DNA from: a virus
Taxonomy: Duplodnaviria; Caudoviricetes
Direction: 5' to 3' (one strand)
Length of the DNA stretch: 64,000 bases
IMG/VR virus record: IMGVR_UViG_3300005077_000001
Span: 128,001 to 192,000 of that record
In this document: positions 3,001-36,451 of the stretch, piece by piece
How the letters are laid out: each line of letters begins with the position of its first letter
How positions within the stretch are numbered: the first letter of the stretch is position 1
The notes under the pieces: generated by a model
What the model saw: the letters and a program-made list of their open reading frames with translations, nothing else
What the model was told of the DNA's origin: nothing
Database searches by the model: none
Translations under genes and position numbers: made by a program

Positions 3001-6000
3001 AAGTAACTTCAGAAGCCATACCATTAAGAAATGAAGTATTTTCTATCACAAAAGAAATGGCTGGTACTGGACCTACTGATGTTTCCTTGGATACAAATGA
3101 ACCTGTAGACTACACATCTCCAGCAGGAGTAATACCTTTTGTATCTACTCAAGGATATCAACGGACTTTACCATCCTCAAATCTTCCTTTTATGATGGGG
3201 CTATTTAGAGGAAGAACTAATGAGCCTTTTAAATTTGATGGAGGGTCATCTTTATTACCAGGTGTTGATAGACGTGTAATGTTACCAGAAATTAAGGATA
3301 AATATCCTTCAATGCTTAAAGCTTTTACTAATATGCAATCTCCTATATACCATTATAAGGGTATAGCTAAATGGAATGAAGGAAAACCATATATCAATAT
3401 ATATAATTCTGATAAGATATCGCTAGAAGAATTTTTAAAAAGGGCTAAACACGAGATAAACCATTTAGTATTATATAGATTATACACTTCTCTAAATAAA
3501 GAAGAAAGAGATTATTTAAAAACAGAATTGGAAACTACACCTTTCTCAAAAGATTTTCTTCCAGACATAGTTGATATGGTAATAAAAGGAGCTGGTGGAT
3601 TTAAAATAGGAAAAGAGTTATTAGCCATGTCCACTGAACGAGGATTAATGTCTGATAGTCCTATATTAAGAAGATTACAAGAAATCACATTATCGATTTA
3701 TAAAAAACATGAAGCAGAATTAAAAGATGTTCATAAGAAAACTATGTCTGGCTCTTCTTCTTTGTTTGATTTATCAACAGCAAAATATATATTAGAAGAT
3801 ATTAAATCAGATCCTTTAAAACAATCTTTGGGCGCAGGTGCCGAAGGTAAGATATATACAAGTCCTAAATACCAACATTTAGCTGTAAAGGAATATGCTC
3901 AACCAATATTTGGATATCAAGATTGGTTAGATCGTGGAAATGAAATAATGCAGAGATTGCACGGTACGTCTCTATTTCCAGAAACATCTTTAAATTATGA
4001 TGATAAAAAAGGCGTTTTTATAGAAATTATGGAACGGTTACATGGAGAAACTGTGCATAATTCTGTTGGTCAATCAGGTTTTAATAAGTATGAGGTACTA
4101 AAGGATTATAAACAAAAAATTTATGAAATGTTGAAACGTAAAGTATTTCCAGTAGATTCTCATCTTAATAATATATTTTTGGAAAGTTCATCTAAAAAAC
4201 AGAAATTTATAGACTTAGGATCTTTAGATTTAGGAGAAAATGTTGAATATATAAATGAAATTTTAAAAGACATAGGAGTTAATCAATATTCTAATTACTT
4301 AACTAATGATCACTCAGCTAAAATAGAGCAATCAAAAATAGCAATAGAAGCTTATGCTGGGCCTGTTGTTGATATTCAAAAAAAAATGACGGCTGGTAAT
4401 AAAAAGATTTTAAAAGAGATTTCGATTCCAAATTTGGAAAGATTAATTCCTCTTTTTAAGAATAAAACACTAAAAGACATGTTTCAAAATGCTTTAGATA
4501 CAGCTAAACAATATGCTGGGTCTCCTTCACTCTTAAAAGGTCCAAATGATTTTCCAACTTTCTTAAGCGGTCTACATCCAGGAATGGCCCCTGAACAAGC
4601 CATTGATGCAGCTATGGCGGCTAACAAACAATCTATTGAATACTTAGGTGGCCCAGAAAAAGCGGCGGGTTTCTTAGAAGGGTTTAAAACTCCATTATTA
4701 GAAGAAACACAAAAGAAAATAAGAGATATTATGAGAGGAGAATTTGGTGGTTCTTCCTCACTAACTAGTCATTTTATGAATAGTTTACGAAGGATGCCGC
4801 AGTCTTATGAGGCTGTTAAATCTCTTCATTCTGGGGTTAGAAACTTAGGTCTTCAAAACCAAGTTAATCTATTTGGTGGTGGAGTAAGAGATATTTTAAG
4901 AGGCGAAACACCAAATGATTATGATGTACAAGTTAGAAGCCAAGAAGCATTGGATCTATTAAGAAGTAAAATGCCTTGGGATCTTTATAAAGTCAATGAA
5001 GCTTTTGATGTTAAATCTTATATGCTTCCTACAAGGAGAGAGTTTTTATCTACATTAGTGAATGAGCTTATAAAGCATACTTTTTTAAGCAAAACAGTAG
5101 GAAGAGCACAAACAGCACATCAAGTAACACAAGATTTAAATACACTTTTAGGCAAAGATATTAAGAGAGAAGTTTTAGATAGATTTGGAGGTAGTTCTTC
5201 TTTATTTGATATGTCTCCTGATTTTAAAATAGATTTAAGTAAACCTATAATTGATATACCAAAGATTCCTAAGATACCTAGAATACCAAAAACAGGGTAC
5301 TATCCTAAAGGTAATTTAGATACCTATTATGATTCTATATTTGCAACTCCAGAAGAAAAACGAAGTATATCTTGGAATGAAAGATTCAATGTAGATTCAC
5401 TAGTTCAAGGACCATTTGAAAACCTATATGATGACATAATGCGTGATAAATATGCTCCTAGAACCCGTCCAAGTATAAATTTTAGAAATTTATTTAGTGC
5501 TCCTCAATTTAGAAATATATTTTCTAATTTAAAAGATAGTGGAAGTGTATTTTTTGGTGGTACTGGGAAAGCTCAAAGTACACAAGTGGAATTAAAAACA
5601 TCTAAAGATATAGAAAGATGGTTAAGACAATTCACTGAAGCTGAAGTAATGCAAGTTGCACAAGAAAGCCATAGATTAACTGGGGATTTAGCAGGTCGTC
5701 AAGCTCCTACACAAGAAACTGCAAGGGATTATATACTTAATATACTAAACGATATTGCTCAACGAGAAGGTGGTAAACTATTAGCTGGGACTGGAATAGC
5801 TAAGAAATTCTTACAAATTATTGCTCCTGATCTAACTCCTTCGTTATTTACTGGTCAAACTTCAGAAGGTAGTATCAGAAGAGGCCATAGCTTTGGAAGA
5901 CCTAGTGCCACTTTCGGAGGAGGTAGAGTTTCTATTACTGAAAGTGTTGCTGGAACAGGTGCGGAGAAACATGAATTTGGAGAAGCACTTTCTGATGTAG

Positions 6001-9000
6001 CTATCCAATTATTACATCAGCGTTTTGAAACCGGTACTACTTCAAAAGAGCAACTAGCTTATGAAGATTTAATGCCACTAATAGAGAAGTCTGCACCTAA
6101 AACTGCACAAGAAATAAAGGATCAAATGGAACGTAAACTGGCATATCCTACGGAAGGTGAAAAGTTTAGTGAAGTTTTAGCGGATATTATGGGGCAACAT
6201 CAAGAAAAGTTGGTAGGTAATCTAATATTAAAAAACAATATTACTCCTGAAGAATTCATGGATATACTAAAGCCTACTGGAAAAGAAAGTGGTTATGAGG
6301 AATTCATTACTAAAGAAGCTTGGCATAAAGTATTGCAAGAGCGTTATTATGAAACACCCAGAGGGGAGGGAGAAGGTGCTATGCCAGAACTCCCACGTGG
6401 GTATAAGTTAGAAAAAGGGGTTGGTAGATTAGGATATCGTACAGCAGGAGCGGCAGAAAGTTTACTCCATGTTCCAATGATTGGTAGCCCATTGTCTTTA
6501 GTAAGTGCTGCATCCAAACTAACAGAAGGAACTAGATTTAGTTCTCCTTTCCAAATAGCAGAAGAAGCAATGATGACTATGCGTGGTCCACTCGGTATGG
6601 CTGCTAGATTTCCTTTTGGTATGGCGGGTATCTTTGCTGGTTCTGCGTTAGGAAAAGGACAAGAACTAGGAGAGAAATTAAATATTAACCCTCTAACTGG
6701 CACTCTACTTGCTTCACCAGAAGAATTATTAAATTTTCAATTATTTAATCTTGGAAGCCAAGCTGAGTTCTTTGGAAAAACACCTTTATCTAAAATTGGA
6801 AAGCCTATTGGTCCTACTTGGATGCACGGATGGGGAGGAAATTTATCACCAGAATTACAGGTGAAAAGAGCAATAGCTGAAGCGGGAACACTTAGAGGAG
6901 GAGCAGCTTCCCTGCTTAAAACGGGTGGTAGCTTAGTAAAAGGTACTGTAGCAATGGAAGCTCTTAGTCCTGTTGGGGAATCTATTTTTGGTTATATTAA
7001 TGAAAGATACGGAAAAGAAATAGATGAGAAATTAAAAGGAATAATGGGGGAAGATACTTATAAAAATTTTGCTTTAACTACGAGTGGTATAGCTAGACAG
7101 TTTTCTTACATATTTAGTAAAGTAGGAGAAGCTGCAACTAGTGTTCCTGGGGGAGAGTTAGCTAGCTTCGCTATTAGCGGAATAAGAACCAACATGAGTC
7201 GTTTAATAAGTGACAGAATAGATACAAAAGCAATAAAATCCGCTAAAGAAAATATTAGAAGCTTAGAACAACAAATGCAAGATTTTCCTACATTTAAACC
7301 TTTCTATGAACAACAAATACAAGAAAAACAACTTAATATTGAAGCGTCTGGTCGATCTATGGGGGATAGGTTATTAGAAAGGATGATGGGGCAGAGGTTT
7401 GGAGAAGGAGCTACTAGCACAAGGGTTGAGGATATACAACAAAGAATTGACTGGATGAAAAAAGCTTTAGCAGGAGGAACATTAGAAACTAAACCATCTA
7501 TCCCATTTGATTTGGGTCCTCTAAACTTCATAAATGATTTACTACCAAAACCTGAATTAGATGATAAGCGTAAATGGGAAGAAGTAATACCTGAAGGTGC
7601 CCGCAAACAATTATTAGAGAGGGAAATAAAAAAATTAGAAGCTCAAATGCAAACTCCAACTGCTATTGGAAATTTACCTAATATTAATGATTTTATGTAC
7701 GAAAAAACAGAAAAAATTGTTAATATGAGAAAAGAAAGAATGGATTTAGAAGATGAATTAAATAAGCTTATTGGCGAAGATCCAATGGGCGGCCAAACGG
7801 GCCCAGCCAGAGCTGGTATTAGAAATAAAATAGCAGATTTAGACAAAAGAATAAATCAAGAAGTTCAAGTAACTGATAATTATTATAAATTAATAACTGA
7901 GGCACAAAAAGCACAAGTCTCTTCTACACAACCGCAGATTCTGGCTGAACCGGCACCTGCCCAATTAGAACCTGGTACTGAAGTTAAGCCACCAAAAGAA
8001 AAAGTAATGATGCCTGGTATTTTAGGAGATTTGATTAAACATAAATATGCACCACAAATTGTAGCATTAGTTGGTATGATTCCTAAACCAAAAGTTCCAG
8101 TTAAAACATTAGCTGATACTCCAAAAGAAGAGATAGAAAAAGCTTTAGAACTTGCTAAATCTGAACGAGGTAAAGCTTATAACGATTACTATAATTCCCA
8201 AGAGTATGAAAAAAATAAGGAATTGATGAATGATATCCTTAATTCTAAACCTGGGTCAAAAGAATGGCGTGAAGCGTCAGAGAGGTATAAACACTACACT
8301 ACTGAAACTACATCTCATCTAAATCTTAAAGAATCAAGAGTATTTGAATTAGAAAAAGAATTACAAAAAAGGGATGAAAAGGCAACTGAGGTAAGAAAAA
8401 GGTTAAAAGATAGAGAGAAAGCAATTAGTGATGAGAATAGTGAGATAGAGAAAAAGATAAGATTCATTTCTAAAGATAGTAGGGTTAGTGAATACCCACA
8501 AGCTGATTACTTTAAAAATAGAATTGATACAACAACAGAAGATATAGAAAAAAGAAGAGATAAGAACCGAGCATTGTTGGCTGAATATGCCTATAATTTA
8601 AATCAACCCGGATTTGAGGCAAACGCTACTAAAAGTGAAGATGTTCTAAATGAAAAAACTTGGAATCGTGAATACGGAACATATGAACCTGTGCGTATGC
8701 CTAAAGCTGTACCGTTTATTAAGCCATTTGATCCGTATGAAGCAGAACGTGCTCAGTTAAATATGTGGGGGTATACTCCTTCACAATTATATAAAAAGAC
8801 TCATCCTAAAGAACGAACTCCGTTGAGATTACCTGGAATGGGATTTGGAGTAGTGTTTACTGCTGGTGGAGCTAGAGAAGAAGGTTCTGGTGGAGCTTGG
8901 GATTTAGGCAGCTCTTTTATGTCTGATCAATCAGATTATAGAAATGCTGGTTTTGGATATCCAAAAAGAGAAATGGATGATAGAACAATAGGTGCTTTAA

Positions 9001-10997
9001 GTCAAGCAGAAAAGGCTAGACGAGAGTATATGGGGCTCTTAATTAGGGCACATACCCAATTTGATTCAACGGGCAGTAAAGGTTCATTCCCAGCAGGAGT
9101 ACAAAAATTATTAGATGAAGCAAAACTTAAGCAGCGTTATTATGAACGTAGAGCATCTCAATTTGAGCACAACGAAAGAGCAGTAAGAAACGGAGAAATG
9201 GTAAATGGTAAGTCTGTTACCATGGATACCCCCGGCTATATGGGAATGAATGGTGATTGGATTTATAAAGAACACCCTGATGATGCTAAACTTCGTATGG
9301 ACTGGGAAGAAAGAGATAGAATAGCTAGGAATAGATATGATCAAGAACATTTCCTTGATGGAACTAATATTTTAGGCGGGGCTCCTAATGAAACAATGAA
9401 AGAAAATGCGTATTTGATGGGGTTACCACATGATAAACAACAAGCTTTACAGCAATTAAAACAATATGGATACTCCCAAGATAAATTAAATCAGATTGGT
9501 GGAATATTACAATCAGGGAAATCGCTAAAACAGGTGGGGTTAGAAGGGTTAGCTCAGAATCAACAAGCAATTTTGGATTTTTGGAAAAATGCTAAACCTA
9601 CGAGCATGATGTCTCAAGAAGAAATAGATAGAAAACGAAATGAAGCGGAACTGACAATGCAACAATATAATGATAAATTAGGACTTTCACAAAATAACCG
9701 GGGTTGGGATGATAAGGCGTATGGAAGATACATAGCTCAAAATGCAAGACCAGAAGTTAGTCATTTGATGGTTGATTATTATAGAAAAAGGCATGGGATG
9801 ATCAATGCAAGAGAAGATTCTTTTGAAAATTCAAGAGAACAATGGGAATATCGTAGAAAAGAAGTCGGAGATTTATCTGATGAGGAGAGAAATGCAAGAG
9901 ATCAAAGGTTAAGAGAAGGAATACCTAATTCTGGAGATTTTGATAGAGATACTTGGGAAGAAACTAAACGGATGCAGGATTACTATTTTAGTAAATGGAG
10001 AAAAAACAATAAAGATAAAGCTAATTGGTTTATAAGCACCGAACAGAAAAACCCTGCTATGTTTAGAACTGGTTATATCCCTGCTCAAGAATACGATCCT
10101 ATATTTAGTAAAGGTGGTGGTTTATATTCATATTATCCGAGCCCTTATGGTAAAGGAGTTGATACTGCGGTAATGCAAAATACATACGCAAATAGAACAG
10201 GTATGATGTCTGCTAATTATGGATATACTTATAAACCTAATGCAAATGAGACAGTGACTGTTTCTCCAATGTATTGGTCTAATGAACAACAACCAGTAAA
10301 TCCAATGGGACTCCCTGACTACGGATATGTGTCTGGTGTATCAAAAGGAACTGTTGGTGAACAATGGGATCGCATGAATGCTGCCGGTGCTTTTAGAAAT
10401 GATAGTGAACGATTTGGTGCCTTAGCTGGTATATATAAACAACAAGGTTATTCAGATACCGATATAAATAAAAAAATATATGAACAATTTGGTGAAAAAG
10501 GGCTAAAGGGGCTAGAACAATCACAAGCTACAAAAGTATTTGTTACCAATTTTCCTGATGATGTTAACGAAAGAATGCGTCAAGATTTTGGTGACCTACT
10601 TAATAAAGTAGCACAAAGTATTTCTTCATTACAAGAAACAATTAGCAGTAGTCTAAAAATAGAGTTTCCTCAAGATATGAGTGTGAGAGTTAATAACTTC
10701 AATGATTTAAATTTTGGTGGAGCTGGTGCTGCGGGTAGTAATGAGAAACTGTCTGCAGATGTAGATCAAATTAGATCTGATTTAGAATTAGTTAGAGCAC
10801 AACTTCCTAATGTATCTACAGATTTCCTATCAAATATTGAGGGTACTTTAACTAATCTGACTGATTCTATTACTAGAGAAATAACGAGAGTGGATGCTTT
10901 AGAGACAGTTATAGGAAAGCTTGATGCTAAAAGTAAAGATCTAAATAACAGACAAAATGACACTGAATTATTCCCAAAAGGAGAGGCACCTTTTTAA
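3..10997 (+). CDS. Giant tape-measure-like / polyvalent virion protein (5'-truncated, >3657 aa) with zincin metallopeptidase, protein-kinase-like and nucleotidyltransferase motifs
   Basis: Frame is open from base 3 (FEQLARQL...), so the true start lies upstream. Motifs: HELFGH (1710), HEINH (3450), GAGAEG/AVK/DSHLNN/DLG (3831-4220), GGGVRD...DYD (4875-4925), HEFGE (5970). Long charged helical stretches. Lies directly upstream of baseplate-hub-like genes, the usual tape-measure position. Confidence 0.65.
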   Translation, partial: FEQLARQLYVLKETNWGLDYISYQVGMGKFPGSLERARMDESTGMLLPGLGTPGMNYTPIMESRASGYDEFGNVKYEDVPQPMQPGSRLWQEAILHPGKASYYNWLAKEEQTKALQDREDQKLEQQKGIAKQAQTSIVEALYEPSLPEGFREVLNKQRSKLEEDLRRASEIEEVGPDNILKRRGFKSLNDLKGLSDAIKNALKAEDRKLEATYIWMPIVDAIRDLHGALTGERPEGSKEEQRMRAFYNNPEQYYYSKAAQLSQHYMGQEGTSVIENTNLTNTLSSIESKPYSIPVGQYAGYQSKLGSRDTNEILKSILEVLIGCCREGKVGSGRSSGTSDTGKERSPISQDSGSASGSAGVQTFDYGTPDYQKLVPVGNTAYSVGSSTTKSSTSAGSGSVQSWVKSDGTVVGVPKTQVDAMSYLKHRGYPDEKLDDIAERYKRPLPIGDYSTDSVMMAASRAYASTGKYFRPSEAYNSDFDWRVRQEGSLLDIGISRLSDNRFLYSDIKAQMESGKGAGWLDSESRLALILAHAPSLNIGGRQTVIGESNPLSMAFVNLSKARMDQTVAHELFGHGMETLGAAELRGEQGISIGATPRVEYLSKVLELIKSQVGEAPFRTITNQLIKDPQLYPDLFKGQGKEIEDAYAAYVNRYPRGNVPTLELLKMQEKANKLPLDLSPNSSNWSRLTEYMAMFAEGENTPYGIPTETWLRVVRNVSPRHFEGVDKFLSSRFANDNLSDSELMKEYRIAINKIKSEVYTPAHLVEQKEVTQPVVSPIDKTLASIGRIPDLNWKVFSDEFKERNKIGMGDKLTKLFNNVGDSIKKVVLGDDTKVALQKFQGVVGAVEVEENKFTNDLSKALELRSNVISQVQESIGLIKSKRTPLVSSPLIRKDLIGAGPTGVELLENERQTGELVSNIIASNLSKAYQLPFTDRTRKLLSNEQIDMGYKKDLLNLTPTLPMIEENQKDEYKNKLFIPIMKSPYSELARKFSNEAQAHPEVTSEAIPLRNEVFSITKEMAGTGPTDVSLDTNEPVDYTSPAGVIPFVSTQGYQRTLPSSNLPFMMGLFRGRTNEPFKFDGGSSLLPGVDRRVMLPEIKDKYPSMLKAFTNMQSPIYHYKGIAKWNEGKPYINIYNSDKISLEEFLKRAKHEINHLVLYRLYTSLNKEERDYLKTELETTPFSKDFLPDIVDMVIKGAGGFKIGKELLAMSTERGLMSDSPILRRLQEITLSIYKKHEAELKDVHKKTMSGSSSLFDLSTAKYILEDIKSDPLKQSLGAGAEGKIYTSPKYQHLAVKEYAQPIFGYQDWLDRGNEIMQRLHGTSLFPETSLNYDDKKGVFIEIMERLHGETVHNSVGQSGFNKYEVLKDYKQKIYEMLKRKVFPVDSHLNNIFLESSSKKQKFIDLGSLDLGENVEYINEILKDIGVNQYSNYLTNDHSAKIEQSKIAIEAYAGPVVDIQKKMTAGNKKILKEISIPNLERLIPLFKNKTLKDMFQNALDTAKQYAGSPSLLKGPNDFPTFLSGLHPGMAPEQAIDAAMAANKQSIEYLGGPEKAAGFLEGFKTPLLEETQKKIRDIMRGEFGGSSSLTSHFMNSLRRMPQSYEAVKSLHSGVRNLGLQNQVNLFGGGVRDILRGETPNDYDVQVRSQEALDLLRSKMPWDLYKVNEAFDVKSYMLPTRREFLSTLVNELIKHTFLSKTVGRAQTAHQVTQDLNTLLGKDIKREVLDRFGGSSSLFDMSPDFKIDLSKPIIDIPKIPKIPRIPKTGYYPKGNLDTYYDSIFATPEEKRSISWNERFNVDSLVQGPFENLYDDIMRDKYAPRTRPSINFRNLFSAPQFRNIFSNLKDSGSVFFGGTGKAQSTQVELKTSKDIERWLRQFTEAEVMQVAQESHRLTGDLAGRQAPTQETARDYILNILNDIAQREGGKLLAGTGIAKKFLQIIAPDLTPSLFTGQTSEGSIRRGHSFGRPSATFGGGRVSITESVAGTGAEKHEFGEALSDVAIQLLHQRFETGTTSKEQLAYEDLMPLIEKSAPKTAQEIKDQMERKLAYPTEGEKFSEVLADIMGQHQEKLVGNLILKNNITPEEFMDILKPTGKESGYEEFITKEAWHKVLQERYYETPRGEGEGAMPELPRGYKLEKGVGRLGYRTAGAAESLLHVPMIGSPLSLVSAASKLTEGTRFSSPFQIAEEAMMTMRGPLGMAARFPFGMAGIFAGSALGKGQELGEKLNINPLTGTLLASPEELLNFQLFNLGSQAEFFGKTPLSKIGKPIGPTWMHGWGGNLSPELQVKRAIAEAGTLRGGAASLLKTGGSLVKGTVAMEALSPVGESIFGYINERYGKEIDEKLKGIMGEDTYKNFALTTSGIARQFSYIFSKVGEAATSVPGGELASFAISGIRTNMSRLISDRIDTKAIKSAKENIRSLEQQMQDFPTFKPFYEQQIQEKQLNIEASGRSMGDRLLERMMGQRFGEGATSTRVEDIQQRIDWMKKALAGGTLETKPSIPFDLGPLNFINDLLPKPELDDKRKWEEVIPEGARKQLLEREIKKLEAQMQTPTAIGNLPNINDFMYEKTEKIVNMRKERMDLEDELNKLIGEDPMGGQTGPARAGIRNKIADLDKRINQEVQVTDNYYKLITEAQKAQVSSTQPQILAEPAPAQLEPGTEVKPPKEKVMMPGILGDLIKHKYAPQIVALVGMIPKPKVPVKTLADTPKEEIEKALELAKSERGKAYNDYYNSQEYEKNKELMNDILNSKPGSKEWREASERYKHYTTETTSHLNLKESRVFELEKELQKRDEKATEVRKRLKDREKAISDENSEIEKKIRFISKDSRVSEYPQADYFKNRIDTTTEDIEKRRDKNRALLAEYAYNLNQPGFEANATKSEDVLNEKTWNREYGTYEPVRMPKAVPFIKPFDPYEAERAQLNMWGYTPSQLYKKTHPKERTPLRLPGMGFGVVFTAGGAREEGSGGAWDLGSSFMSDQSDYRNAGFGYPKREMDDRTIGALSQAEKARREYMGLLIRAHTQFDSTGSKGSFPAGVQKLLDEAKLKQRYYERRASQFEHNERAVRNGEMVNGKSVTMDTPGYMGMNGDWIYKEHPDDAKLRMDWEERDRIARNRYDQEHFLDGTNILGGAPNETMKENAYLMGLPHDKQQALQQLKQYGYSQDKLNQIGGILQSGKSLKQVGLEGLAQNQQAILDFWKNAKPTSMMSQEEIDRKRNEAELTMQQYNDKLGLSQNNRGWDDKAYGRYIAQNARPEVSHLMVDYYRKRHGMINAREDSFENSREQWEYRRKEVGDLSDEERNARDQRLREGIPNSGDFDRDTWEETKRMQDYYFSKWRKNNKDKANWFISTEQKNPAMFRTGYIPAQEYDPIFSKGGGLYSYYPSPYGKGVDTAVMQNTYANRTGMMSANYGYTYKPNANETVTVSPMYWSNEQQPVNPMGLPDYGYVSGVSKGTVGEQWDRMNAAGAFRNDSERFGALAGIYKQQGYSDTDINKKIYEQFGEKGLKGLEQSQATKVFVTNFPDDVNERMRQDFGDLLNKVAQSISSLQETISSSLKIEFPQDMSVRVNNFNDLNFGGAGAAGSNEKLSADVDQIRSDLELVRAQLPNVSTDFLSNIEGTLTNLTDSITREITRVDALETVIGKLDAKSKDLNNRQNDTELFPKGEAPF

Positions 10998-11009: not shown

Positions 11010-13523
11010 ATGGCAACGGCAACACAAAATAATCCAGAAATATTTGGTAATCCATGTTTAACAAATAATTGGTCAAAAACTATACAAGCCTGTAGAGATT
11101 CAATGAAGTATGACAAAGACTTCATTGCTATAGATATACTTCGTACTTTTGATATATCTGTTAATATGAATTCTGTTTATGGCGATAATTCTCATGATTC
11201 ACTTAACAAAAATCAATATACTAATTTATGTCCACTAGATATTCAAACTCAAGATGCTTTTACAGTAATGAGAGCTTCTTTAGATGCTAAATTACTAAAT
11301 GGGGAATATTGGGAGGTATATTCTAATGAATTTGGTGAAGCCGAATTTGTATTAATATTGAAAGATAGTTCTCCTAATACCCATTTATGCAAATTACCTG
11401 AAATACGGTATTGTATTCCAGGTGCAAAAATGGATCAAATTACTGATTTAGTAATTGTAAGAGGGAATACTCCGATTCCTGAAATATCTTGTGGTGATAC
11501 TGAAATTATTGTATTATCAAAAGATCAACCCATAGTTGAAAATGTGTGTGAATTAGGAAATATATTTACTAAAAGACCCTTTAATTCTGCTGAATCAGCT
11601 ATAACTGCTCTTGGGGCTAAAATGGAATGGGGAATGTTAGCGGAATCAAGGGGTGGTTCGTATGTATCTCGCTCTTGTGATTTAGGTAAATTTAGGCAGT
11701 ACGGCACAATAGTATATCCAGAATATGATCGTAAGCAAGTTTTCAAAGATAACATAAGTGACCCAATAGAAATTGGTCCTTTTCAGCAGATTATAGGTTG
11801 GCTTATAGATATTGACTTTGGTAATTTTACATCTGAAGAATTACAACTGTACTATAATGTTAATTTCACTTCTGGTGCTACCGAAATACCTGTTAGGTTA
11901 AAAGATAGTGGACCTTTGGTAGGAAGTGTCTCTGCTCATGAACTTGAAAACTATTTTCCGTTAGAATGTGATTTATCTGTTTTAAATATGAATAGGGCTT
12001 GCATGACCCCTCAAGAATTATTAAAAGCTCATTTTGATGCTTATACACAATTGCAGGGGTGCTCTAACCCCCGTCAGGCTATATTACAAGGGGGTGGTAT
12101 TACTGGATACAATGGTGGGTACATAGTCCCTAATATGTATCAGTATGGTAAAATCCAATCTTGTTTAGATTTTAGTGATGCAAATAGATGGGGCTATCTA
12201 GGTTTTACGGAAAAATGTGGGGGAGACCCTGTTGAAAACATATACCAAAGTACAACACAGATAATAGCTACTGGATTTCCGTTGCGTAGTTGGTACTATG
12301 TGCATTCTTCTGCAGGTCAAGATCAGTATTTTTTTGGTATTCAAACTGAACACCAAACTATCCAATTAACAGAAGGGGAGCATTGGGTTGAGTTATCAGA
12401 GTTTCCTGGTTTGTATACATCTTTAGGTAAGGGAGCTTTTAGATACTATGGGTTAAGATTTAAAGCCCCACCCTCAGCTACTTATAGAGTTACTTATTCT
12501 AATGAGCATACTCCTAATACAGGCGGTTCTTTTGCTGCTGGAGGAGGTACTGATATGGGATGGCAAAATCCGTTTCATGCTTATTTAGGTATGTTTATAC
12601 GTTCTGGTATTGATATGCAAGATTTATCTATATTTTATCAACATGTTGCAGGTAATTATAGTGCTTATTATTTTACTGAGGGATGTTGGAACTACACCCC
12701 AGGAGGTTACCTAGCAGGAATAAACGATGGGTTATGGACTATAGATGAAGGTAGTTTATATGCTAAAGTAAATGTATCAAGACCTGGGATTCAGATTAGA
12801 ACAGCTGGAAAAGATGTAAGACCTTTATTGGAAGCCATTTCGATGAAAGTAAAACCTATTTTTCAAAATACCATGCAACAACCAGTTGCAGCTTGTGGTA
12901 ATAATTTTTGTCAAATAATAGATCCAGAAACTGGTTTATACGATAATGTATGGTGTACTAGAGAAGAACTAGATAGTGATGCAGAAAAATTAAGAGATGC
13001 TATGACTGGTATTACCTTAGAAGTAAACATCACTGCTTTATTCCCAACAGATACATCTTTAAATGGGTATAGAACTGCTGCGGAAGAATGTTTAAAAGTA
13101 GCACAAAATTTATATAATTATTATAATACTTTTAGAAATGAACCATATAAAGGATATACTTATATATGTGGTCCTCCTACAAATAAAGATGAAATACCAA
13201 GATTAGGTAAATGTGTGAGTACTCCTCATGGTATAAGAACTATAAATACGATCAATTATAATTATCAAGATGGTCAATCTTATACATTAAATATTGAAGC
13301 AGGCCCAGCAATGTTTTCTGCACAAGGTGTAGGTCAGCTATATAAAAAGCAAGTAGAAAATGTTACTATAACAGGTAGAGTGGAACAAGTATTAGATGGG
13401 GCTTTATATAAAGTTAATATCCCTAGATATGGAATAATTACAGCTTGGAATGCTGCTAAATGGCCGTGGGAAGTAGGGGATCAAGTACAAGTTGAACTAT
13501 ACAATGTTCCAAAGGAGGCTTAA
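11010..13523 (+). CDS. Putative tail/baseplate structural protein (837 aa)
   Basis: AAGGAG RBS upstream. Position between the TMP-like gene and the hub-like gene. C-terminus (ITGRVEQVLDGALYKVNI...WEVGDQVQV) resembles an OB-fold. Confidence 0.45.
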   Translation: MATATQNNPEIFGNPCLTNNWSKTIQACRDSMKYDKDFIAIDILRTFDISVNMNSVYGDNSHDSLNKNQYTNLCPLDIQTQDAFTVMRASLDAKLLNGEYWEVYSNEFGEAEFVLILKDSSPNTHLCKLPEIRYCIPGAKMDQITDLVIVRGNTPIPEISCGDTEIIVLSKDQPIVENVCELGNIFTKRPFNSAESAITALGAKMEWGMLAESRGGSYVSRSCDLGKFRQYGTIVYPEYDRKQVFKDNISDPIEIGPFQQIIGWLIDIDFGNFTSEELQLYYNVNFTSGATEIPVRLKDSGPLVGSVSAHELENYFPLECDLSVLNMNRACMTPQELLKAHFDAYTQLQGCSNPRQAILQGGGITGYNGGYIVPNMYQYGKIQSCLDFSDANRWGYLGFTEKCGGDPVENIYQSTTQIIATGFPLRSWYYVHSSAGQDQYFFGIQTEHQTIQLTEGEHWVELSEFPGLYTSLGKGAFRYYGLRFKAPPSATYRVTYSNEHTPNTGGSFAAGGGTDMGWQNPFHAYLGMFIRSGIDMQDLSIFYQHVAGNYSAYYFTEGCWNYTPGGYLAGINDGLWTIDEGSLYAKVNVSRPGIQIRTAGKDVRPLLEAISMKVKPIFQNTMQQPVAACGNNFCQIIDPETGLYDNVWCTREELDSDAEKLRDAMTGITLEVNITALFPTDTSLNGYRTAAEECLKVAQNLYNYYNTFRNEPYKGYTYICGPPTNKDEIPRLGKCVSTPHGIRTINTINYNYQDGQSYTLNIEAGPAMFSAQGVGQLYKKQVENVTITGRVEQVLDGALYKVNIPRYGIITAWNAAKWPWEVGDQVQVELYNVPKEA

Positions 13524-13703
13524 GTCATATTGACTAGCTTAAATCTTAATTGACTACGTTATTCAGGTTACAACACCTTGGGATGCTCCTCAAGTTCCAA
13601 GCTCTGTTGCTGTAAATTAAACAGTTCTAAGGAACAGTGTTTACAGTGTAAAAAGCCTCTATAACATTAGCGATGAGGCCCTAACCCGAAAGGAGAACGA
13701 AAC
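13524..13703 (+). ncRNA. IscB omega RNA scaffold
   Basis: Starts GTCA..TTGAC..CTACGTT directly upstream of IscB. Stem CTTGGGA(13577-83)/TTCCAAG(13595-601), whose loop CCTCA (13588-92) is complementary to TGAGG (13674-78), the conserved pseudoknot. Stem CTGTAAA(13610-16)/TTTACAG(13640-46). GTTAT/ATAAC long-range pairing. All match known omega RNA layout. Confidence 0.85.
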
Positions 13704-14927
13704 TTGAGAGTATTCGTTAAAAATCAAAGAAATAAACCATTAATGCCAACAACTCCGGCAAAAGCTAGAATTTTGCTAAAGCAAGGAAAAGCAAAGGTTG
13801 TAAAAAGAACCCCATTTACAATTCAATTACTTTATCCAACCGGAGAAACTAAACAAGAAATTACTTTAGGAGTAGATACTGGGTACAAATTCATTGGGCT
13901 TTCAGCAGTTTCTAAAAAAGAAGAATTATTTTCAGCTCAAGTAGAATTAAGAACAGATATTTCTAAATTACTTAAAGAGAGAAGAATGTATCGAAGGGCT
14001 AGAAGAGAAAGAAAAACTCGGTATCGTAAACCTAGATTTCTTAATCGTGCAAATGCAAGAAAAAAAGGACGATTGATGCCTTCAGTTCAACATAAATTAG
14101 ATTCTCATATCAAACTCGTGAACAAAGTTTCTGAATTATTACCTATTTCAAAAGTTCGAATGGAAATTGCAGCCTTTGACATTCAGAAAATAAAAAATCC
14201 TGAAATAAAAGGAAAAGGATATCAGAACGGAGAACAGAAAGGGTTTAGTAACACCAGAGAGTATGTTTTGTACAGAGACAGCCATAAATGTCAACTTTGT
14301 AAAGGAAAATCAAAAGACAAGATTTTGAATGTGCATCACATAATTTCAAGAATCGAGGGAGGAACTAACCAGCCCGACAACTTAATTACGTTGTGTAAAA
14401 CTTGTCACAGTGAATTTCATAAAGGCATAGTAGAATTAAAAGCAAAACCTAAAAAGAGTTTCAAAGCAGAAACTTTAATGTCTATAATAAGATGGAGAAT
14501 AATTGACCAACTTAAAGCACTGTATATAGATGTTGAAACTACTTACGGCTATGAAACCAAAGAAAAAAGACTAGAATCAGGGATAGAAAAATCTCACATT
14601 AACGATGCTTTTGTTATAGCAAACGGTTCAATACAGAAAAGGAATCAATCGTACCTAATAAAGCAAGTGCGAAAGCAAAATCGTAAACTATTTAAAGGAG
14701 CTAGGAGTCATATTAGAAATACTGCTCCACGATTTTTATTCGGATTTCAGAGATTTGATAAGGTGCTTTTTGAAGGAAATGAGTATTTCATATATGGTAG
14801 ACGAGTAATAGGTAGATTCAAGTTATTTTCTTTAGAATCTGGGATAATAAAAGAAGAACCTAGTTATAAAAGATTAAAATTACTTGAAACAAAAAATACG
14901 TTTGTTATTAATTTAATAAATAGATAA
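13704..14927 (+). CDS. iscB: IscB RNA-guided endonuclease (PLMP/RRXRR + split RuvC + HNH)
   Basis: N-terminal PLMP motif, RuvC-I LGVDTG, Arg-rich bridge helix RRMYRRARR, RuvC-II MEIAAFD, HNH CQLC...VHHI...GGTN..DNLITLCKTCH, RuvC-III SHINDA. TTG start after AGGAG. Confidence 0.93.
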   Translation: MRVFVKNQRNKPLMPTTPAKARILLKQGKAKVVKRTPFTIQLLYPTGETKQEITLGVDTGYKFIGLSAVSKKEELFSAQVELRTDISKLLKERRMYRRARRERKTRYRKPRFLNRANARKKGRLMPSVQHKLDSHIKLVNKVSELLPISKVRMEIAAFDIQKIKNPEIKGKGYQNGEQKGFSNTREYVLYRDSHKCQLCKGKSKDKILNVHHIISRIEGGTNQPDNLITLCKTCHSEFHKGIVELKAKPKKSFKAETLMSIIRWRIIDQLKALYIDVETTYGYETKEKRLESGIEKSHINDAFVIANGSIQKRNQSYLIKQVRKQNRKLFKGARSHIRNTAPRFLFGFQRFDKVLFEGNEYFIYGRRVIGRFKLFSLESGIIKEEPSYKRLKLLETKNTFVINLINR

Positions 14928-14953
14928 CTATACTTAAAAAAGGAATTACAAGG

Positions 14954-16033
14954 ATGACTGATTGCCCAACTCTAAGATTAGATTTAATACGAGCAAGAAT
15001 AGAAGTTGCTGGTATGAGTTTTGGAACTCCAGGATGTGGATACGATACTCATGGGTATATTAACTCTTTTAGTTTAAACCAAAGTAGAGGTCAAGTAATT
15101 TCTACTTTAAATTGTCAACTAGAAATTTGGATTAGAAATCCTATTTCTAGCATAATAAATACTTCTGATGGATTAGGACCTACATTAACTTTGTGGGCTG
15201 GAGTAGAAGGGGGAATGCCTCAAATATTTACTGGATATGTAAAATCTGTCAAAGGAGATCCGCATTTTAATGATTCGAGAAAATATTATTTATCTATAAC
15301 TGCTGAAGATGTTTTTACAAAAATGCGTAATAAAAAGTATAGTAGAAGATTTAAAACTTCTGATTCTGCATATGCATTAATTAGAGGAGGTCAAAGAAAA
15401 GGTGGTGGTAGAATGACACAATTACGTAGAGTTCCCACTAAAGCTATACGATATAAGCAGGTTGCTGGTACTGTTCAGGATACCCATTCCCCATTACAAG
15501 CTACCCCAGACCCGAAAGGATGGACTCCTAATGGTAGAAATCCACAATCAGATACAGTAAAAGATAGATTAGCAGGTCAGTATGTTTATACTTTTCATCC
15601 AAGCACCGTATCCTTATTACCTGGGCAAAGTGCCATATTAACTTTGTACGATGAAGAAGGGAATCCGCGACTAGTAGGTTTACAAAAAGATAATCGAGGA
15701 GATTTTGCTGTTACAATAGACGATAATAGAAGATGCTCTTGCTTTGTTAATCCAAATAACTATGGTACTACTAATAGTAGTAATGTTGATGCAGCTTCTG
15801 GAACAGCTAAACCAGGAGAATTAAGAGTTATTACCTCAGAGATGTCAGATGTGTATTCCGATGAAACAAGAGGAAGGTTCATAATCACAATGAGAGATTG
15901 GTATCCTTTTAGAGGGGTTTTCGTAGACCCAGCAACTAAGGCACTTGCTAAAATAGATGCCATGACTGTTGCTCCACATGGACACGATAACTTAGCAACT
16001 GGTGGTCCCGCAGGAGGTATAGTAGCATATTAA
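14954..16033 (+). CDS. Baseplate hub-like protein (gpD/gp27-like fold)
   Basis: Motifs LTLWAG...QIFTGYVKSV and YLSITAEDV resemble hub proteins. Structural operon context. Confidence 0.55.
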   Translation: MTDCPTLRLDLIRARIEVAGMSFGTPGCGYDTHGYINSFSLNQSRGQVISTLNCQLEIWIRNPISSIINTSDGLGPTLTLWAGVEGGMPQIFTGYVKSVKGDPHFNDSRKYYLSITAEDVFTKMRNKKYSRRFKTSDSAYALIRGGQRKGGGRMTQLRRVPTKAIRYKQVAGTVQDTHSPLQATPDPKGWTPNGRNPQSDTVKDRLAGQYVYTFHPSTVSLLPGQSAILTLYDEEGNPRLVGLQKDNRGDFAVTIDDNRRCSCFVNPNNYGTTNSSNVDAASGTAKPGELRVITSEMSDVYSDETRGRFIITMRDWYPFRGVFVDPATKALAKIDAMTVAPHGHDNLATGGPAGGIVAY

Positions 16034-16034
16034 A

Positions 16035-16781
16035 ATGAGCACATGTAATTGTTGCATAGTATATGATTTATCTGTATCAGAAGGTAATGCAATATTAACT
16101 GGAGTTAATTCTTTAAATATTGATACAAACCTTACCTTCGACTGGTGGGATGAGACAGATAATGAATGTAATCCATATAATACAAAATTAGATTTAATTG
16201 GCCCTGCTATTACTTCATTACAACTGACAGCACACCCATTTGATAATGATAGTATGGAAGAATACGGGTATACTATGGGATTCTCTTGTCCATTTGAATT
16301 ATCTGTTTCAATTGGATATAAATTTATTAATTCTTGTAATGAATGTGTGGATTGTATCGATCCTATAACCGGCGAAGTAATAGGAAGACGTAGAGGTCGT
16401 TGGATAGGTGTCCCCAATCGTAAGAGAGACATAAAAATAACTGGAAACATAGATGACATCCCTTCTTCATTAATGGAATTTGGAGATAGGTTATATAGAG
16501 TAAATAAACTCAATGTGCAAGCAGGACAGCAACCTTTTATTATACCTCCAATTACTTATGCCTATAAGAGTGTCAAATATAAAGGGGGCCCGTTGCTTGT
16601 GGATACAACACAGGATTTTGTGTACGAATTCAGTGTTAATTCTGAAAAATCCTGTCAAGGAATGTTAAAAGTAAATAATATTGAGGCATATCTCACTAAT
16701 TTTACTTGGAAATTTGAACCCCCAAATCCACCAACTTGTAACTATACCTTCAATTGGTATACTGCATTTTGTAACATTTAA
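16035..16781 (+). CDS. Cys-rich putative tail/baseplate protein
   Basis: 248-aa ORF starting 1 bp after the upstream stop, in the structural operon. No family recognised. Confidence 0.4.
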   Translation: MSTCNCCIVYDLSVSEGNAILTGVNSLNIDTNLTFDWWDETDNECNPYNTKLDLIGPAITSLQLTAHPFDNDSMEEYGYTMGFSCPFELSVSIGYKFINSCNECVDCIDPITGEVIGRRRGRWIGVPNRKRDIKITGNIDDIPSSLMEFGDRLYRVNKLNVQAGQQPFIIPPITYAYKSVKYKGGPLLVDTTQDFVYEFSVNSEKSCQGMLKVNNIEAYLTNFTWKFEPPNPPTCNYTFNWYTAFCNI

Positions 16782-16794
16782 AAAGGAAGAGAAT

Positions 16795-17889
16795 ATGGAA
16801 CAAAAAAAATGGACAAAAGAGGAAGAGGAATCACTTAAGCAGCTTTATTTTAAAAATACAACTTTAGAAATAGCCAATATTCTTGGAAGGAGTGTATGGT
16901 CTGTGCAGAACAGAATTAGAAAATTAGGTATATCTGGTAATAAATACTGTAAGTGGACTGAAAAAGAAGAGAATAAACTAAAAGGATTATATTATTCCAC
17001 AAATATTAAGAATTTAGAAACTATTTTTCATAGGAAAGCAAAAAACATACAAACAAAAGCTTCAACGATGGGCCTTTTTTCAAATAGATATTGGTCAAAG
17101 GAAGAGGATCTAGTTTTAATAGAACAATACCCTACTGTTGAAACAAAAAAATTAGTTAAAATGTTAAATAGATCACGTAACGGAATTATTCAAAGAGCTG
17201 GTTTTTTAAACATTAGCAAGGCTGAAGAGTGTAAGTTTAAACACCTCAAAAAGTATAGATGTAACGATTCTTATTTTAACATTATTGATTCTCCTGACAA
17301 AGCTTATTTTTTAGGATTTTTATGGGCAGATGGTAATATTCACAACTCACGACATTCTATTAAGCTCTCTCTTAATATAAAAGATAGGGTTGTTTTAGAA
17401 AAATTTAAATATTATATAGAAGCGTCTAACCCAATTTATACTAGATTAAAAAACAATTGCTGTACATTCACAGTGTTTTCTAAACAAATGTATATTGATC
17501 TTATAGATAAGGGTATTACCCCAAATAAAACATATGGAACTACAATCCCAAATAATATTCCAAACGACATGTGCTCCCATTTCATAAGGGGATTATTTGA
17601 TGGTGATGGTGGAATTTATAATAGATTAAGAAAGAATAAATATTTAGATTCTAAAATAGATATAAGTAATAATGAATCTACAATAAATTGGCTATATGAT
17701 GCTGTTGATATAAATTGTGGTATTAAAGGAACTAAAGATAAAAGAAAAGGAGTTCATTGCTGGAGATGGTCCATCTATTCTAGATTAAATATTATTAATT
17801 TTGCTAATTATATATATAAAGATTCAAAAGATCTTTATTTAGAACGAAAACATAATCGTTTTATAGAATATGGTTTACTGGAGAAATAA
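16795..17889 (+). CDS. Free-standing LAGLIDADG homing endonuclease with three N-terminal Myb/SANT-like repeats
   Basis: AYFLGFLWADG and HFIRGLFDGDG motifs. Repeats KWTKEEE, KWTEKEE, YWSKEED. ATG at 16795 follows AAAAGGAAGAG. Confidence 0.85.
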   Translation: MEQKKWTKEEEESLKQLYFKNTTLEIANILGRSVWSVQNRIRKLGISGNKYCKWTEKEENKLKGLYYSTNIKNLETIFHRKAKNIQTKASTMGLFSNRYWSKEEDLVLIEQYPTVETKKLVKMLNRSRNGIIQRAGFLNISKAEECKFKHLKKYRCNDSYFNIIDSPDKAYFLGFLWADGNIHNSRHSIKLSLNIKDRVVLEKFKYYIEASNPIYTRLKNNCCTFTVFSKQMYIDLIDKGITPNKTYGTTIPNNIPNDMCSHFIRGLFDGDGGIYNRLRKNKYLDSKIDISNNESTINWLYDAVDINCGIKGTKDKRKGVHCWRWSIYSRLNIINFANYIYKDSKDLYLERKHNRFIEYGLLEK

Positions 17890-19782: not shown

Positions 19783-20787
19783 ATGGAAAGAAGACGTTGG
19801 ACAAAAGAAGAGGATATAACATTAACTGATTTATATAATTCTAATACTCCTAGATCCATTATATCTAGAATACTTGGTAAAGGAGTTTCTGCTATAAAAT
19901 CTAGAGCTATGATTTTAGGATTATCTAGAAATAATATTTTATATTGGACTGAAGATGAAATTAATTTATTACTTAATTTAAACAAAGAACGAATTTCGAT
20001 TAAAGAAATGTCAGAAAAATTAAATAAGACATCCAATTCAATTAGATGCCAGCTACAAAGATTAAAATTGAAAACTAATGAAGAGGATTTATTAGAAATT
20101 AAAAATGGGAAAGTGCATAAGAATAATAGGTACGGAAGAGCAAATAAAAAATATTATTTTAATGAAAATTATTTTGAAAAGATAGACTCTCACCAAAAAG
20201 CATATTGGTATGGTTTTTTATGGGCAGATGGGTTTGTATATAGAAGGAGAGAGAATTACGTTACAGGGCTTTTATTAAAAGATCCTGAACCAGTATATCA
20301 GTTTAAAGCAGACCTTGGTTCAGATCATCGCATATACATAAATGAAAATAGTTTTTCTATTAGACTTACTTCAGAGAAAATGTTCAAAGACTTGGAAAAA
20401 TTAAATATTATACCTAGAAAAACCTATGCTAACCTAAGACCAAAGATTACAGAAAACTATGTTAATAGTTTCATTTTGGGGATGTTTGATGGGGACGGTA
20501 GTATTAGTATTAATAGGCGATTATCCTTAAATAATTATTATTGCACGCATTATAATCTTAGTATAGCTAATAGTAAAGCTACTTGTTACTGGTTAAAAGA
20601 TGTTATTAATAGTAATTTGAATATATATAGCTATGTACAATCAAGAAAAGGGACTGTTGGTTGTGTATGGAGAACTAATAGCAAAAAGAGTATTTCTAAA
20701 TTTGCTGATTGGGCTTATAAAGATGTTGATTTCAAGTTGGAAAGAAAGTACAACAAATTTATTCAGTCAGGTATTCTGGATAAATAA
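19783..20787 (+). CDS. Free-standing LAGLIDADG homing endonuclease with two Myb/SANT-like repeats
   Basis: AYWYGFLWADG and SFILGMFDGDG motifs. Repeats RWTKEED, YWTEDE. C-terminus LERKYNKFIQSGILDK resembles that of 16795..17889. Confidence 0.85.
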   Translation: MERRRWTKEEDITLTDLYNSNTPRSIISRILGKGVSAIKSRAMILGLSRNNILYWTEDEINLLLNLNKERISIKEMSEKLNKTSNSIRCQLQRLKLKTNEEDLLEIKNGKVHKNNRYGRANKKYYFNENYFEKIDSHQKAYWYGFLWADGFVYRRRENYVTGLLLKDPEPVYQFKADLGSDHRIYINENSFSIRLTSEKMFKDLEKLNIIPRKTYANLRPKITENYVNSFILGMFDGDGSISINRRLSLNNYYCTHYNLSIANSKATCYWLKDVINSNLNIYSYVQSRKGTVGCVWRTNSKKSISKFADWAYKDVDFKLERKYNKFIQSGILDK

Positions 20788-35515: not shown

Positions 35516-36451
35516 ATGGCTAAAAAATGGACTGAGGAAGAAGTGAATATACTTAGAGAGAATTATGGGAAGATGAGTAATAGGGAGTTGGGGAATATAT
35601 TAAAAAGAACAACTTGTGCTGTTCAATCTAGGGCAGTTAATATGGGTATTTCTATAAAAAAAGAAACGATACCAGATAAGTGGTCAGAAGAAGAAATACA
35701 GATTTTAAAATGTAATTATAAAGAACAAGATCATAAATTTTTAAGTAAAAAATTAAATAGAAGTATTTCTGCTATTAGGCATATGGGTAGGAAATATAAT
35801 TTAACATCCCTTTATAATAATTACTCTTTAAATGAGGATTATTTTTCAGAGATAAATGAAAATACATTATATTGGGCCGGTTTCATTGCTGCTGATGGTT
35901 CAATTTCCGTAACAAAAAAAGGATATTCGTTAAATATAGGATTGAGTATTAAAGATAAAGTTATATTAGACCGTTTTAAAAAAGAACTAAAATACGACGG
36001 ACCAGTAAAAATTAAAACATCAGAAAAGATATGCTATTTATATGTTTATTCTAAGAAAATTATAGAAGATTTAAATAATAATTTTAATATCGCACCTAGA
36101 AAAACTTTTATTTATGTACCTCCACCATTACCTGATAATTTAAAAAGTTCTTTTGCTATTGGTTTAATAGACGGAGATGGTCATATAGGAATAAGTAAAG
36201 AAGGATATTTACATATTTCTTTATATGGAAGTTTTAACACAGTTCTTTGGTTCAAAAAATTTGTTAATCAGATTGTTGATGCACCTAATAAAATAAAACA
36301 ACAAAAAAATAGTTATGCTTTTGTGATTAAGGGTAAAAAAGCATTGAAATTAGGAGAATATTTAAATTCAATAAACGTTCCTTTTAGATTAGAAAGAAAA
36401 TGGAATAAAATAGAAGAATGCAAGAAATTAAATAATATAGGAGAACTATAA
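35516..36451 (+). CDS. Free-standing LAGLIDADG homing endonuclease with two Myb/SANT-like repeats
   Basis: LYWAGFIAADG and SFAIGLIDGDG motifs. Repeats KWTEEE, KWSEEE. AAAGGTG RBS. Confidence 0.87.
   Translation: MAKKWTEEEVNILRENYGKMSNRELGNILKRTTCAVQSRAVNMGISIKKETIPDKWSEEEIQILKCNYKEQDHKFLSKKLNRSISAIRHMGRKYNLTSLYNNYSLNEDYFSEINENTLYWAGFIAADGSISVTKKGYSLNIGLSIKDKVILDRFKKELKYDGPVKIKTSEKICYLYVYSKKIIEDLNNNFNIAPRKTFIYVPPPLPDNLKSSFAIGLIDGDGHIGISKEGYLHISLYGSFNTVLWFKKFVNQIVDAPNKIKQQKNSYAFVIKGKKALKLGEYLNSINVPFRLERKWNKIEECKKLNNIGEL

Follow-up and report, generated by a model that had tools for sequence, protein, structure and literature searches.

A phage-borne IscB-omega RNA element that has lost both transposase hairpins and may persist by RNA-guided homing

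We describe here an IscB nuclease gene and its omega RNA, which together form an insertion in the genome of a phage. The window analysed is a stretch of 64,000 nucleotides, corresponding to bases 128001-192000 of one IMG/VR virus record (IMGVR_UViG_3300005077_000001). This record is linear, 256,335 bp long and estimated to be 97% complete, and has a G+C content of 33%. The element occupies positions 13524-14953 of the window, in a region where the long open reading frames (ORFs) all lie on the plus strand. It consists of an omega RNA, the iscB gene and a short 3' tail. Its nuclease gene and the core of its guide RNA are intact, and both of the hairpins that are expected near the ends of such elements are gone. 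On balance we favour, with modest confidence, the view that it is a non-autonomous ISC transposon of the N|ATGA class, encoding IscB and its omega RNA, which has lost both sites for the transposase TnpA and persists by RNA-guided homing.

The identity of the nuclease is clear from its domain composition. The protein matches the Pfam families RRXRR (1e-65, residues 3-176) and HNH (1.4e-11, residues 196-240), carries the PLMP motif at residues 12-15, and aligns to IscB chains in the PDB with E-values from 7e-48 to 1e-33. The original prediction, made by reading the sequence, had reported that all RuvC and HNH catalytic motifs are present, and the alignments bear this out. The catalytic residues are D58, E154, H298 and D301 in RuvC and H211/H212 and N226 in HNH, and D58, E154, H211/H212, H298 and D301 align to D61, E193, H246/H247, H340 and D343 of OgeuIscB. 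For comparison we collected 79 viral and 80 cellular IscB loci with 46-66% identity to the protein. In 75 distinct relatives, 125 columns are at least 90% conserved, and the phage IscB retains 121 of them (median 123) on a terminal branch of 0.62 changes per site. Judged by its sequence, the iscB ORF is not decaying. The nearest relative (L163) has an identical leader and also starts with TTG. The composition of the element (GC 31.5%, GC3 21%) matches that of the phage, and the 256,335-bp genome contains one iscB and one copy of the omega RNA.

The omega RNA is recognised by the Rfam family RF02033 (HEARO), which is the only Rfam family with a match across the whole window. The cmscan alignment, which the original prediction had proposed as a check, covers model positions 1-211 with 117.6 bits (gathering score 83, E 1.2e-23) and ends 18 nt before the iscB start codon. 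The core stems and the pseudoknot had been described as intact; all core helices and the pseudoknot are indeed present, with three non-standard pairs. Folding of the single sequence gives a z-score of -1.56, which is uninformative, as one would expect with a pseudoknot, and we therefore use the covariance-model match as evidence. The sole large departure from the model is found in the first stem, where only 3 nt stand in for the 44 nt of model positions 5-48. The first stem-loop has thus shrunk from about 50 nt to 11 nt, and what is left is the short GTCA-TAT-TGAC hairpin that had been noticed from the letters. More than 60 HEARO matches in 49 viral records range from 194 to 258 nt, with one exception of 170 nt (L045), and the RNA described here is the shortest.

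In OgeuIscB the first stem-loop is the guide-adaptor hairpin, which joins the guide to the nexus stem (PMC9640706). The question is then whether an omega RNA with such a small adaptor would still work. Engineering of OrufIscB into NovaIscB by Kannan et al. 2025 (PMC13180657) removed about 42-44 nt from the top of the same 5' hairpin, and the inner part of the guide-adaptor stem proved dispensable for cleavage. Like the engineered RNA, the phage RNA keeps a short stem, a small loop and the remaining scaffold. Unlike it, the truncation is natural and the protein belongs to another IscB clade, which has no REC-linker insertion (407 residues compared with about 495). That a natural truncation mirrors an engineered one supports the idea that the 162-nt omega RNA could be functional, short of proof because the phage IscB comes from this shorter clade. 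Separately, Tandem Repeats Finder reports two units of 19-20 nt at 13518-13556, GCTTAAGTCATATTGACTA and GCTTAAATCTTAATTGACTA, which span the junction between flank and omega RNA, and the GCTTAA of the flank reappears in the pseudoknot strand of the scaffold. This recurrence may be due to chance, or it may be a trace of the collapse of the first stem.

The boundaries of the element can be seen by comparison with relatives that do not have it. It had been suggested to look for related phages without the element at this site, and we found three such contigs (L081, L082 and a contig from JGI), which are all the contigs found with homologues of both flanking genes. In each of them the two genes are directly adjacent, 1-2 nt apart, so that 13524-14953 is an insertion exactly at the gene junction. 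The junction reads CCAAAGGAGGCTTAA-TA-ATGG in L082 and CCTAAGGAGGTATAG-TA-ATGG in L081. The left flank in the window reads CCAAAGGAGGCTTAA followed by the omega RNA, and both junctions align to this flank through the stop codon. The last codons of the upstream gene contain AAGGAGG, which is the ribosome-binding site of the next gene in the element-free relatives and is separated from that gene by the insertion. The 3' tail of the element would supply a replacement.

The two ends also agree with a known class of elements. Kapitonov et al. 2016 described an N|ATGA class of ISC elements with a 5'-GTCA terminus and a flanking ATGA as the target site (PMC4810608), and the GTCA at 13524 and the ATGA at 14954 match these termini and this target. 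No flanking direct repeat that would indicate a target duplication was found. Across the 79 viral and 80 cellular loci the omega RNA begins with GTCA or a near variant and the element ends right before ATGA or ATGG. In about 35 of the 79 viral loci this ATGA or ATGG is the start codon of the next ORF, as it is here. Such insertions fall between genes and leave them unbroken. Among viral loci with a short 3' untranslated tail, for example L002 and L004, the tail is made up of a Shine-Dalgarno sequence for the next ORF. The features of the locus are listed in Table 1.

Table 1. Features of the IscB-omega RNA element and its surroundings, in window coordinates.
Feature	Position	Strand	Remarks
Upstream phage gene	11010..13523	+	837-aa ORF; 5' of the IscB element
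Putative guide segment, 16 nt, TCCAAAGGAGGCTTAA	13508..13523	+	directly 5' of the scaffold; includes the upstream stop codon; length assumed
Omega RNA scaffold (HEARO), 162 nt	13524..13685	+	Rfam RF02033
Collapsed guide-adaptor hairpin (first omega RNA stem), GTCA-TAT-TGAC	13524..13534	+	from the cmscan alignment
Shine-Dalgarno-like AAGGAG	13690..13695	+	8 nt before the iscB TTG; read from the sequence
iscB, 407 aa	13704..14927	+	TTG start; PLMP/RRXRR N-terminus, split RuvC with inserted HNH
3' tail of the element, 26 nt	14928..14953	+	no palindrome; AAGGA at 14940-14944, 9 nt before the next ATG
ATGA, N|ATGA-type ISC target and expected target-adjacent motif (TAM)	14954..14957	+	start codon and next base of the 359-aa gene
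Downstream phage gene	14954..16033	+	359-aa ORF; 3' of the IscB element

Binding of the Y1 transposase TnpA in IS200/IS605 elements needs subterminal hairpins, and the relatives show what such hairpins look like. In most of them an inner hairpin, CCC(C)-stem-(C)TAAAG-stem-GGG(G), is nested within the first omega RNA stem. The 3' end has a hairpin of matching form between TTCCT and TTTCC, and about 150 relatives show such 5' and 3' pairs. Within an element the two are more alike than hairpins taken from different elements: similarity is 0.39 for pairs from one element and 0.19 for cross pairs (57 distinct pairs, permutation p 2e-4). In L046 the same hairpin occurs at both ends, and elements with a GGCAAGCC loop at one end carry a GGCAAGCC loop at the other. 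This is the pattern expected of twin sites bound by one TnpA, and the paired hairpins, deduced here from sequence comparison, fit such a role. Subterminal hairpins at both ISC termini were also described by Kapitonov 2016 (PMC4810608). The original prediction had placed one hairpin inside the 5' stem of the omega RNA, which is correct, and the other after iscB. For the latter the position needs to be revised, as the 3' palindrome usually straddles the iscB stop codon or lies within the last codons.

In the phage element neither hairpin is found. The 26 nt that follow the iscB stop had been described as free of hairpins, and both folding and motif searching agree: no palindrome or motif occurs from -110 to +80 nt of the stop, the best local DNA fold near the 3' end of iscB reaches -4.1 kcal/mol, and for the end region the folding energy is -5.1 kcal/mol (z -1.0). 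The C-terminus of IscB can be aligned up to the point where the palindrome of the relatives starts and then gives way to AT-rich sequence. We considered an assembly artefact and rejected it, as both ends show divergent AT-rich sequence rather than a clean gap and the C-terminus stays alignable until that very point. The nearest relatives, L163 (66% identity), L002 (64%) and L165 (63%), retain both hairpins, and the loss is therefore derived in the lineage of the phage element.

A further question is how often hairpins have been lost elsewhere. The classification of hairpins is partly manual, combining cmscan alignments with inspection of the printed ends. An automated energy threshold is noisy and misplaces the end of the first stem in several loci, and with it the p-value for joint loss of both hairpins is about 0.01-0.04. 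The cmscan alignments show a collapsed first stem in three elements (the one described here, L045 and L080), and degenerate inner 5' hairpins are present in L036, L064, L075 and L004. These states arise separately on the IscB tree, each beside elements with intact hairpins. By inspection, all seven elements are without a recognisable 3' palindrome, although L036, which has a short imperfect hairpin after the stop, is the least clear case. All seven retain the seven catalytic residues. Only the 3' palindrome is absent in L049, L066, L073, L054 and L079, and none of the inspected loci clearly combines loss of the 5' hairpin with a retained 3' palindrome. Judging from this order of loss, an element that is without its 3' site may no longer need the inner 5' hairpin. 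Collapsed first stems were seen in 3 of 75 viral loci and in no clear case among about 76 cellular loci with a usable HEARO match, several of which (L087, L092, L120) have late starts in the HEARO model. The counts are too small and we do not claim a viral enrichment.

Some of these loci have peculiarities of their own. L087 and L092, both on Candidatus Methanoperedens contigs, have a full-length iscB with only the last 50 nt or so of the HEARO model matched upstream; the rest of their omega RNA is divergent, displaced or missing. L004 and L084 are the same 78,067-bp contig, recorded once as an IMG/VR virus and once as part of a Patescibacteria metagenome-assembled genome, and the IscB element on it has no 3' palindrome and a degenerate 5' hairpin. 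On two viral contigs tRNA genes adjoin the IscB elements, at L045:3164-3569 and L036:6588-6660.

Can the element still transpose? The absence of tnpA from the window had been pointed out before, and we can extend it to the whole 256,335-bp genome, which has no match to Y1_Tnp (PF01797). A nearby tnpA is found for only about 1.5% of iscB genes (Meers et al., 10.1101/2023.03.14.532601), so its absence is not unusual and the loss of the hairpins is the informative feature. It is conceivable that the remaining ends are still recognised, non-canonically, by a TnpA of the host or of a co-resident element: most iscB genes depend on TnpA in trans, the element keeps its 5'-GTCA terminus and ATGA flank, and some viral records hold tnpA beside several IscB copies. 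The host could supply TnpA in trans. Yet the element is without both hairpins that Y1 transposases of this superfamily need for binding and that vary together at the two ends of about 57 distinct elements, and the genome has neither a tnpA nor a second copy. Identical-ended copies at many loci, which would point to a mobile element, were sought and not found. The best relative has 66% identity in viral, cellular and 5.8-billion-protein collections, and no close relative exists elsewhere. Taken together, the lack of hairpins, tnpA, further copies and close relatives makes TnpA-driven mobility of this element unlikely, and we think it very improbable that it is still transposable in the manner just described. 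Homing would then be the only remaining route by which it could spread.

Under homing, the history and the action of the element can be pictured as follows, where expression, TAM recognition, cleavage and homing are steps that we infer. An ISC-type element (IS200/IS605 superfamily) was inserted exactly at the junction of two adjacent genes of the phage structural block, before the start codon of the second. It later lost the hairpin nested in the guide-adaptor stem and the palindrome that in relatives overlaps the 3' end of iscB. Transcripts reading through from the upstream gene would yield an omega RNA whose 5' guide consists of the last 16 nt or so of that gene. The guide of IscB is the flank 5' of the scaffold (PMC9640706), and our assignment of the guide to about 16 nt before 13524 follows this known layout rather than data from the locus. 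In a co-infecting relative without the element, the guide sequence would directly precede an ATGA-type motif, and the IscB-omega RNA complex would cut this junction. The occupied site would be spared, as the scaffold parts the target from the motif, and the element would be copied into the cut genome by recombinational repair on the element-bearing one. In this way it would resemble the free-standing homing endonuclease genes of phages, with a specificity module made of RNA, and would need no TnpA. The existence of empty sites in related phages fits with this picture. The putative guide matches the empty site of L082 at 15 of 16 positions, and the genome has no second site with two or fewer mismatches.

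Several observations weigh against homing. The element-free relatives are distant (53-62% protein identity) and their junction reads TAA-TA-ATGG. At the L082 empty site the base after the 16-nt match is the T of TAAT and not the beginning of ATGA, so the known empty sites may not be substrates under an ATGA-like TAM. The hairpin loss could be recent, if it came about by a single deletion or replacement, and the intact ORF would then carry little weight. At conserved positions, hairpin-less elements diverge slightly more than the others (median 120.5 vs 123, p 0.011), which could mean relaxed constraint, and intact ORFs are over-represented among the relatives, because these were sampled by near-full-length protein matches. 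Finally, a scan for promoters and terminators gave counts no higher than those in shuffled sequences.

Some of these points lead to a rival explanation, in which the element is an immobile remnant in decay. It would have landed once by TnpA in trans, would have lost its ends by chance and would now be a neutral, inactive passenger whose nuclease has not yet been disrupted. A single copy with its closest relative at 66% identity, the long terminal branch, the somewhat greater divergence of hairpin-less elements and the known empty sites without ATGA right after the guide match would all be expected from such a remnant. What speaks against it is the state of the element. The 1.2-kb ORF is still open after that long branch, with all its catalytic residues and 121 of the 125 conserved columns, and the core of the omega RNA scores 34 bits above the Rfam cut-off. 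Furthermore, lost ends with a kept nuclease recur in separate lineages, and the tail has gained a ribosome-binding site for the next gene. We therefore regard decay as unlikely, with an appreciable chance of being right, and continue to favour homing.

The original prediction went further and called the element possibly domesticated. Its description of the anatomy stands, since both hairpins are gone while the nuclease and the omega RNA core are intact, but we see no reason to keep the word. The guide is native flanking DNA as in any IscB element, an arrangement that speaks for a selfish homing element and against recruitment by the phage. No repeat array was found in or near the element, and we accordingly rejected a CRISPR-associated or array-guided IscB; no extra guide or regulatory partner for IscB was found at the element either. 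It might still be argued that the phage benefits, for instance if the nuclease cuts insertion-free relatives in co-infection and thereby excludes their markers. The geometry of such a recruited system would be identical to that of homing, and sequence alone cannot tell the two apart. Competitor killing by phage homing endonucleases has been documented (PMC13565253), and at least three LAGLIDADG-type genes in the same gene block suggest frequent conflict between co-infecting genomes. Given the plain flanking guide and the lack of any added component, we find recruitment rather improbable.

The LAGLIDADG-type ORFs lie between genes of the plus-strand block, at 16681-17889 (with a probable start near 16795), 19783-20787 and 35516-36451, and two of the three have Myb-like N-terminal repeats. 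Together with IscB they make four free-standing nuclease genes in 23 kb. The 837-aa gene is immediately preceded by an open frame (3-10997, more than 3,660 aa) that runs past the start of the window and whose final 1,198 aa have no Pfam match. The two genes that flank the element are poorly characterised. Neither has a Pfam or PHROG match, and relatives of them are very few in the 5.8-billion-protein collection. Homologues of the 837-aa gene show 62% and 33% identity, and those of the 359-aa gene 53% and 37%, each of them directly 3' of a homologue of the 837-aa gene. A search of IMG/VR with the 359-aa gene gave zero matches, and these flanks are absent from all 79 viral IscB loci. The sole blastn match of the region among GenBank phages is the distant IscB gene of Clostridium phage c-st.

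The survival of IscB and its omega RNA is usually credited to the nuclease restoring the transposon after TnpA excision. Here both transposase sites are gone and yet the nuclease and guide RNA are conserved, which argues that the nuclease alone can sustain an element by homing. Homing of this kind between co-infecting genomes is a general proposal for which TnpB on plasmids is the only demonstrated case. More tentatively, and with somewhat less than even confidence, we propose that there is a recurrent class of phage IscB elements without TnpA hairpins that are purely RNA-guided homing endonuclease genes, in which the end of the upstream gene would be the guide and the ATGA start of the next gene the TAM. 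Our observations also bear on the structure of the guide RNA. Within an element, the inner guide-adaptor hairpin and the 3' palindrome match, and the former has disappeared only from elements that also lack the latter, which fits a transposase site embedded in the guide RNA gene. If this is true, the ordered loss of the two hairpins would mean that the inner guide-adaptor stem serves the transposase and not the nuclease. The 162-nt scaffold would then be a natural minimal omega RNA, and the site a natural test of transposase-independent homing between phages. In practical terms, the 407-aa IscB comes with a natural scaffold of 162 nt, and its target junction is defined.

That phages carry HEARO and IscB is already known. 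HEARO has been annotated in Silviavirus genomes (PMC13346280), and IscB is found on hundreds of IMG/VR contigs, some of which hold several copies together with tnpA. The records behind L003 (G002), L020 (G017) and L035 (G031) each contain 2-4 HEARO/IscB copies and a Y1 tnpA, so that complete systems of the IS200/IS605 type, with non-autonomous IscB copies, exist on viral contigs. What is new is that both hairpins have been lost while the nuclease and guide RNA stayed intact, and our literature search found no paper on IscB elements that have lost both transposase sites and retained the nuclease.

Compared with known systems, the element is closest in its parts to the ISC2 N|ATGA elements (PMC4810608) and the IscB element of G. 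stearothermophilus (Meers et al. 2023), with which it shares the IscB domain order and the catalytic residues. With ISC and IS200/IS605 IscB elements in general it has in common an upstream HEARO omega RNA on the same strand, the 5'-GTCA terminus, the insertion upstream of ATGA, a guide in the 5' flank, the orientation of the upstream gene and the lack of tnpA in cis. It differs from them by the absence of the subterminal palindromes at both ends, by an omega RNA of 162 nt instead of about 200-250 nt, by being phage-borne and by a 3' tail that holds a ribosome-binding site only. Transposition of that family is recognised by TnpA in cis or in trans and by multiple copies, and here we found a single copy and no tnpA.

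A comparison can also be made with the domesticated derivatives of OMEGA systems, namely TldR, CRISPR-associated IscB and Cas9. TldR is nuclease-dead and targets host promoters, and CRISPR-associated IscB and Cas9 use arrays. Like these, the phage element no longer depends on the life cycle of a transposon. Unlike them, it has an intact nuclease, and its guide is its native flank rather than an array or a host-gene guide.

The free-standing homing endonuclease genes of phages (T4 seg/mob, LAGLIDADG and HNH types) are a better analogy. As with these, a nuclease gene sits between conserved neighbours, relatives are element-free, and the element-free allele would be expected to be cut in co-infection. 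The specificity would come from an RNA guide and a short motif and not from contacts between protein and DNA. Self and non-self would be told apart by the presence of the insertion, as in intron homing, and not by sequence polymorphism. The homing mode of OMEGA systems has been named "transposon non-restorative homing" (PMC13565253), and its nearest precedent is the reported TnpA-independent gene drive of IS605 by TnpB in plasmid populations (PMC11870625). In both cases the cut would fall at the orthologous empty site and the element would be copied in by repair. The plasmid drive concerns TnpB elements with intact ends, whereas the element described here pairs an IscB nuclease with a phage replicon and has lost its transposase sites.

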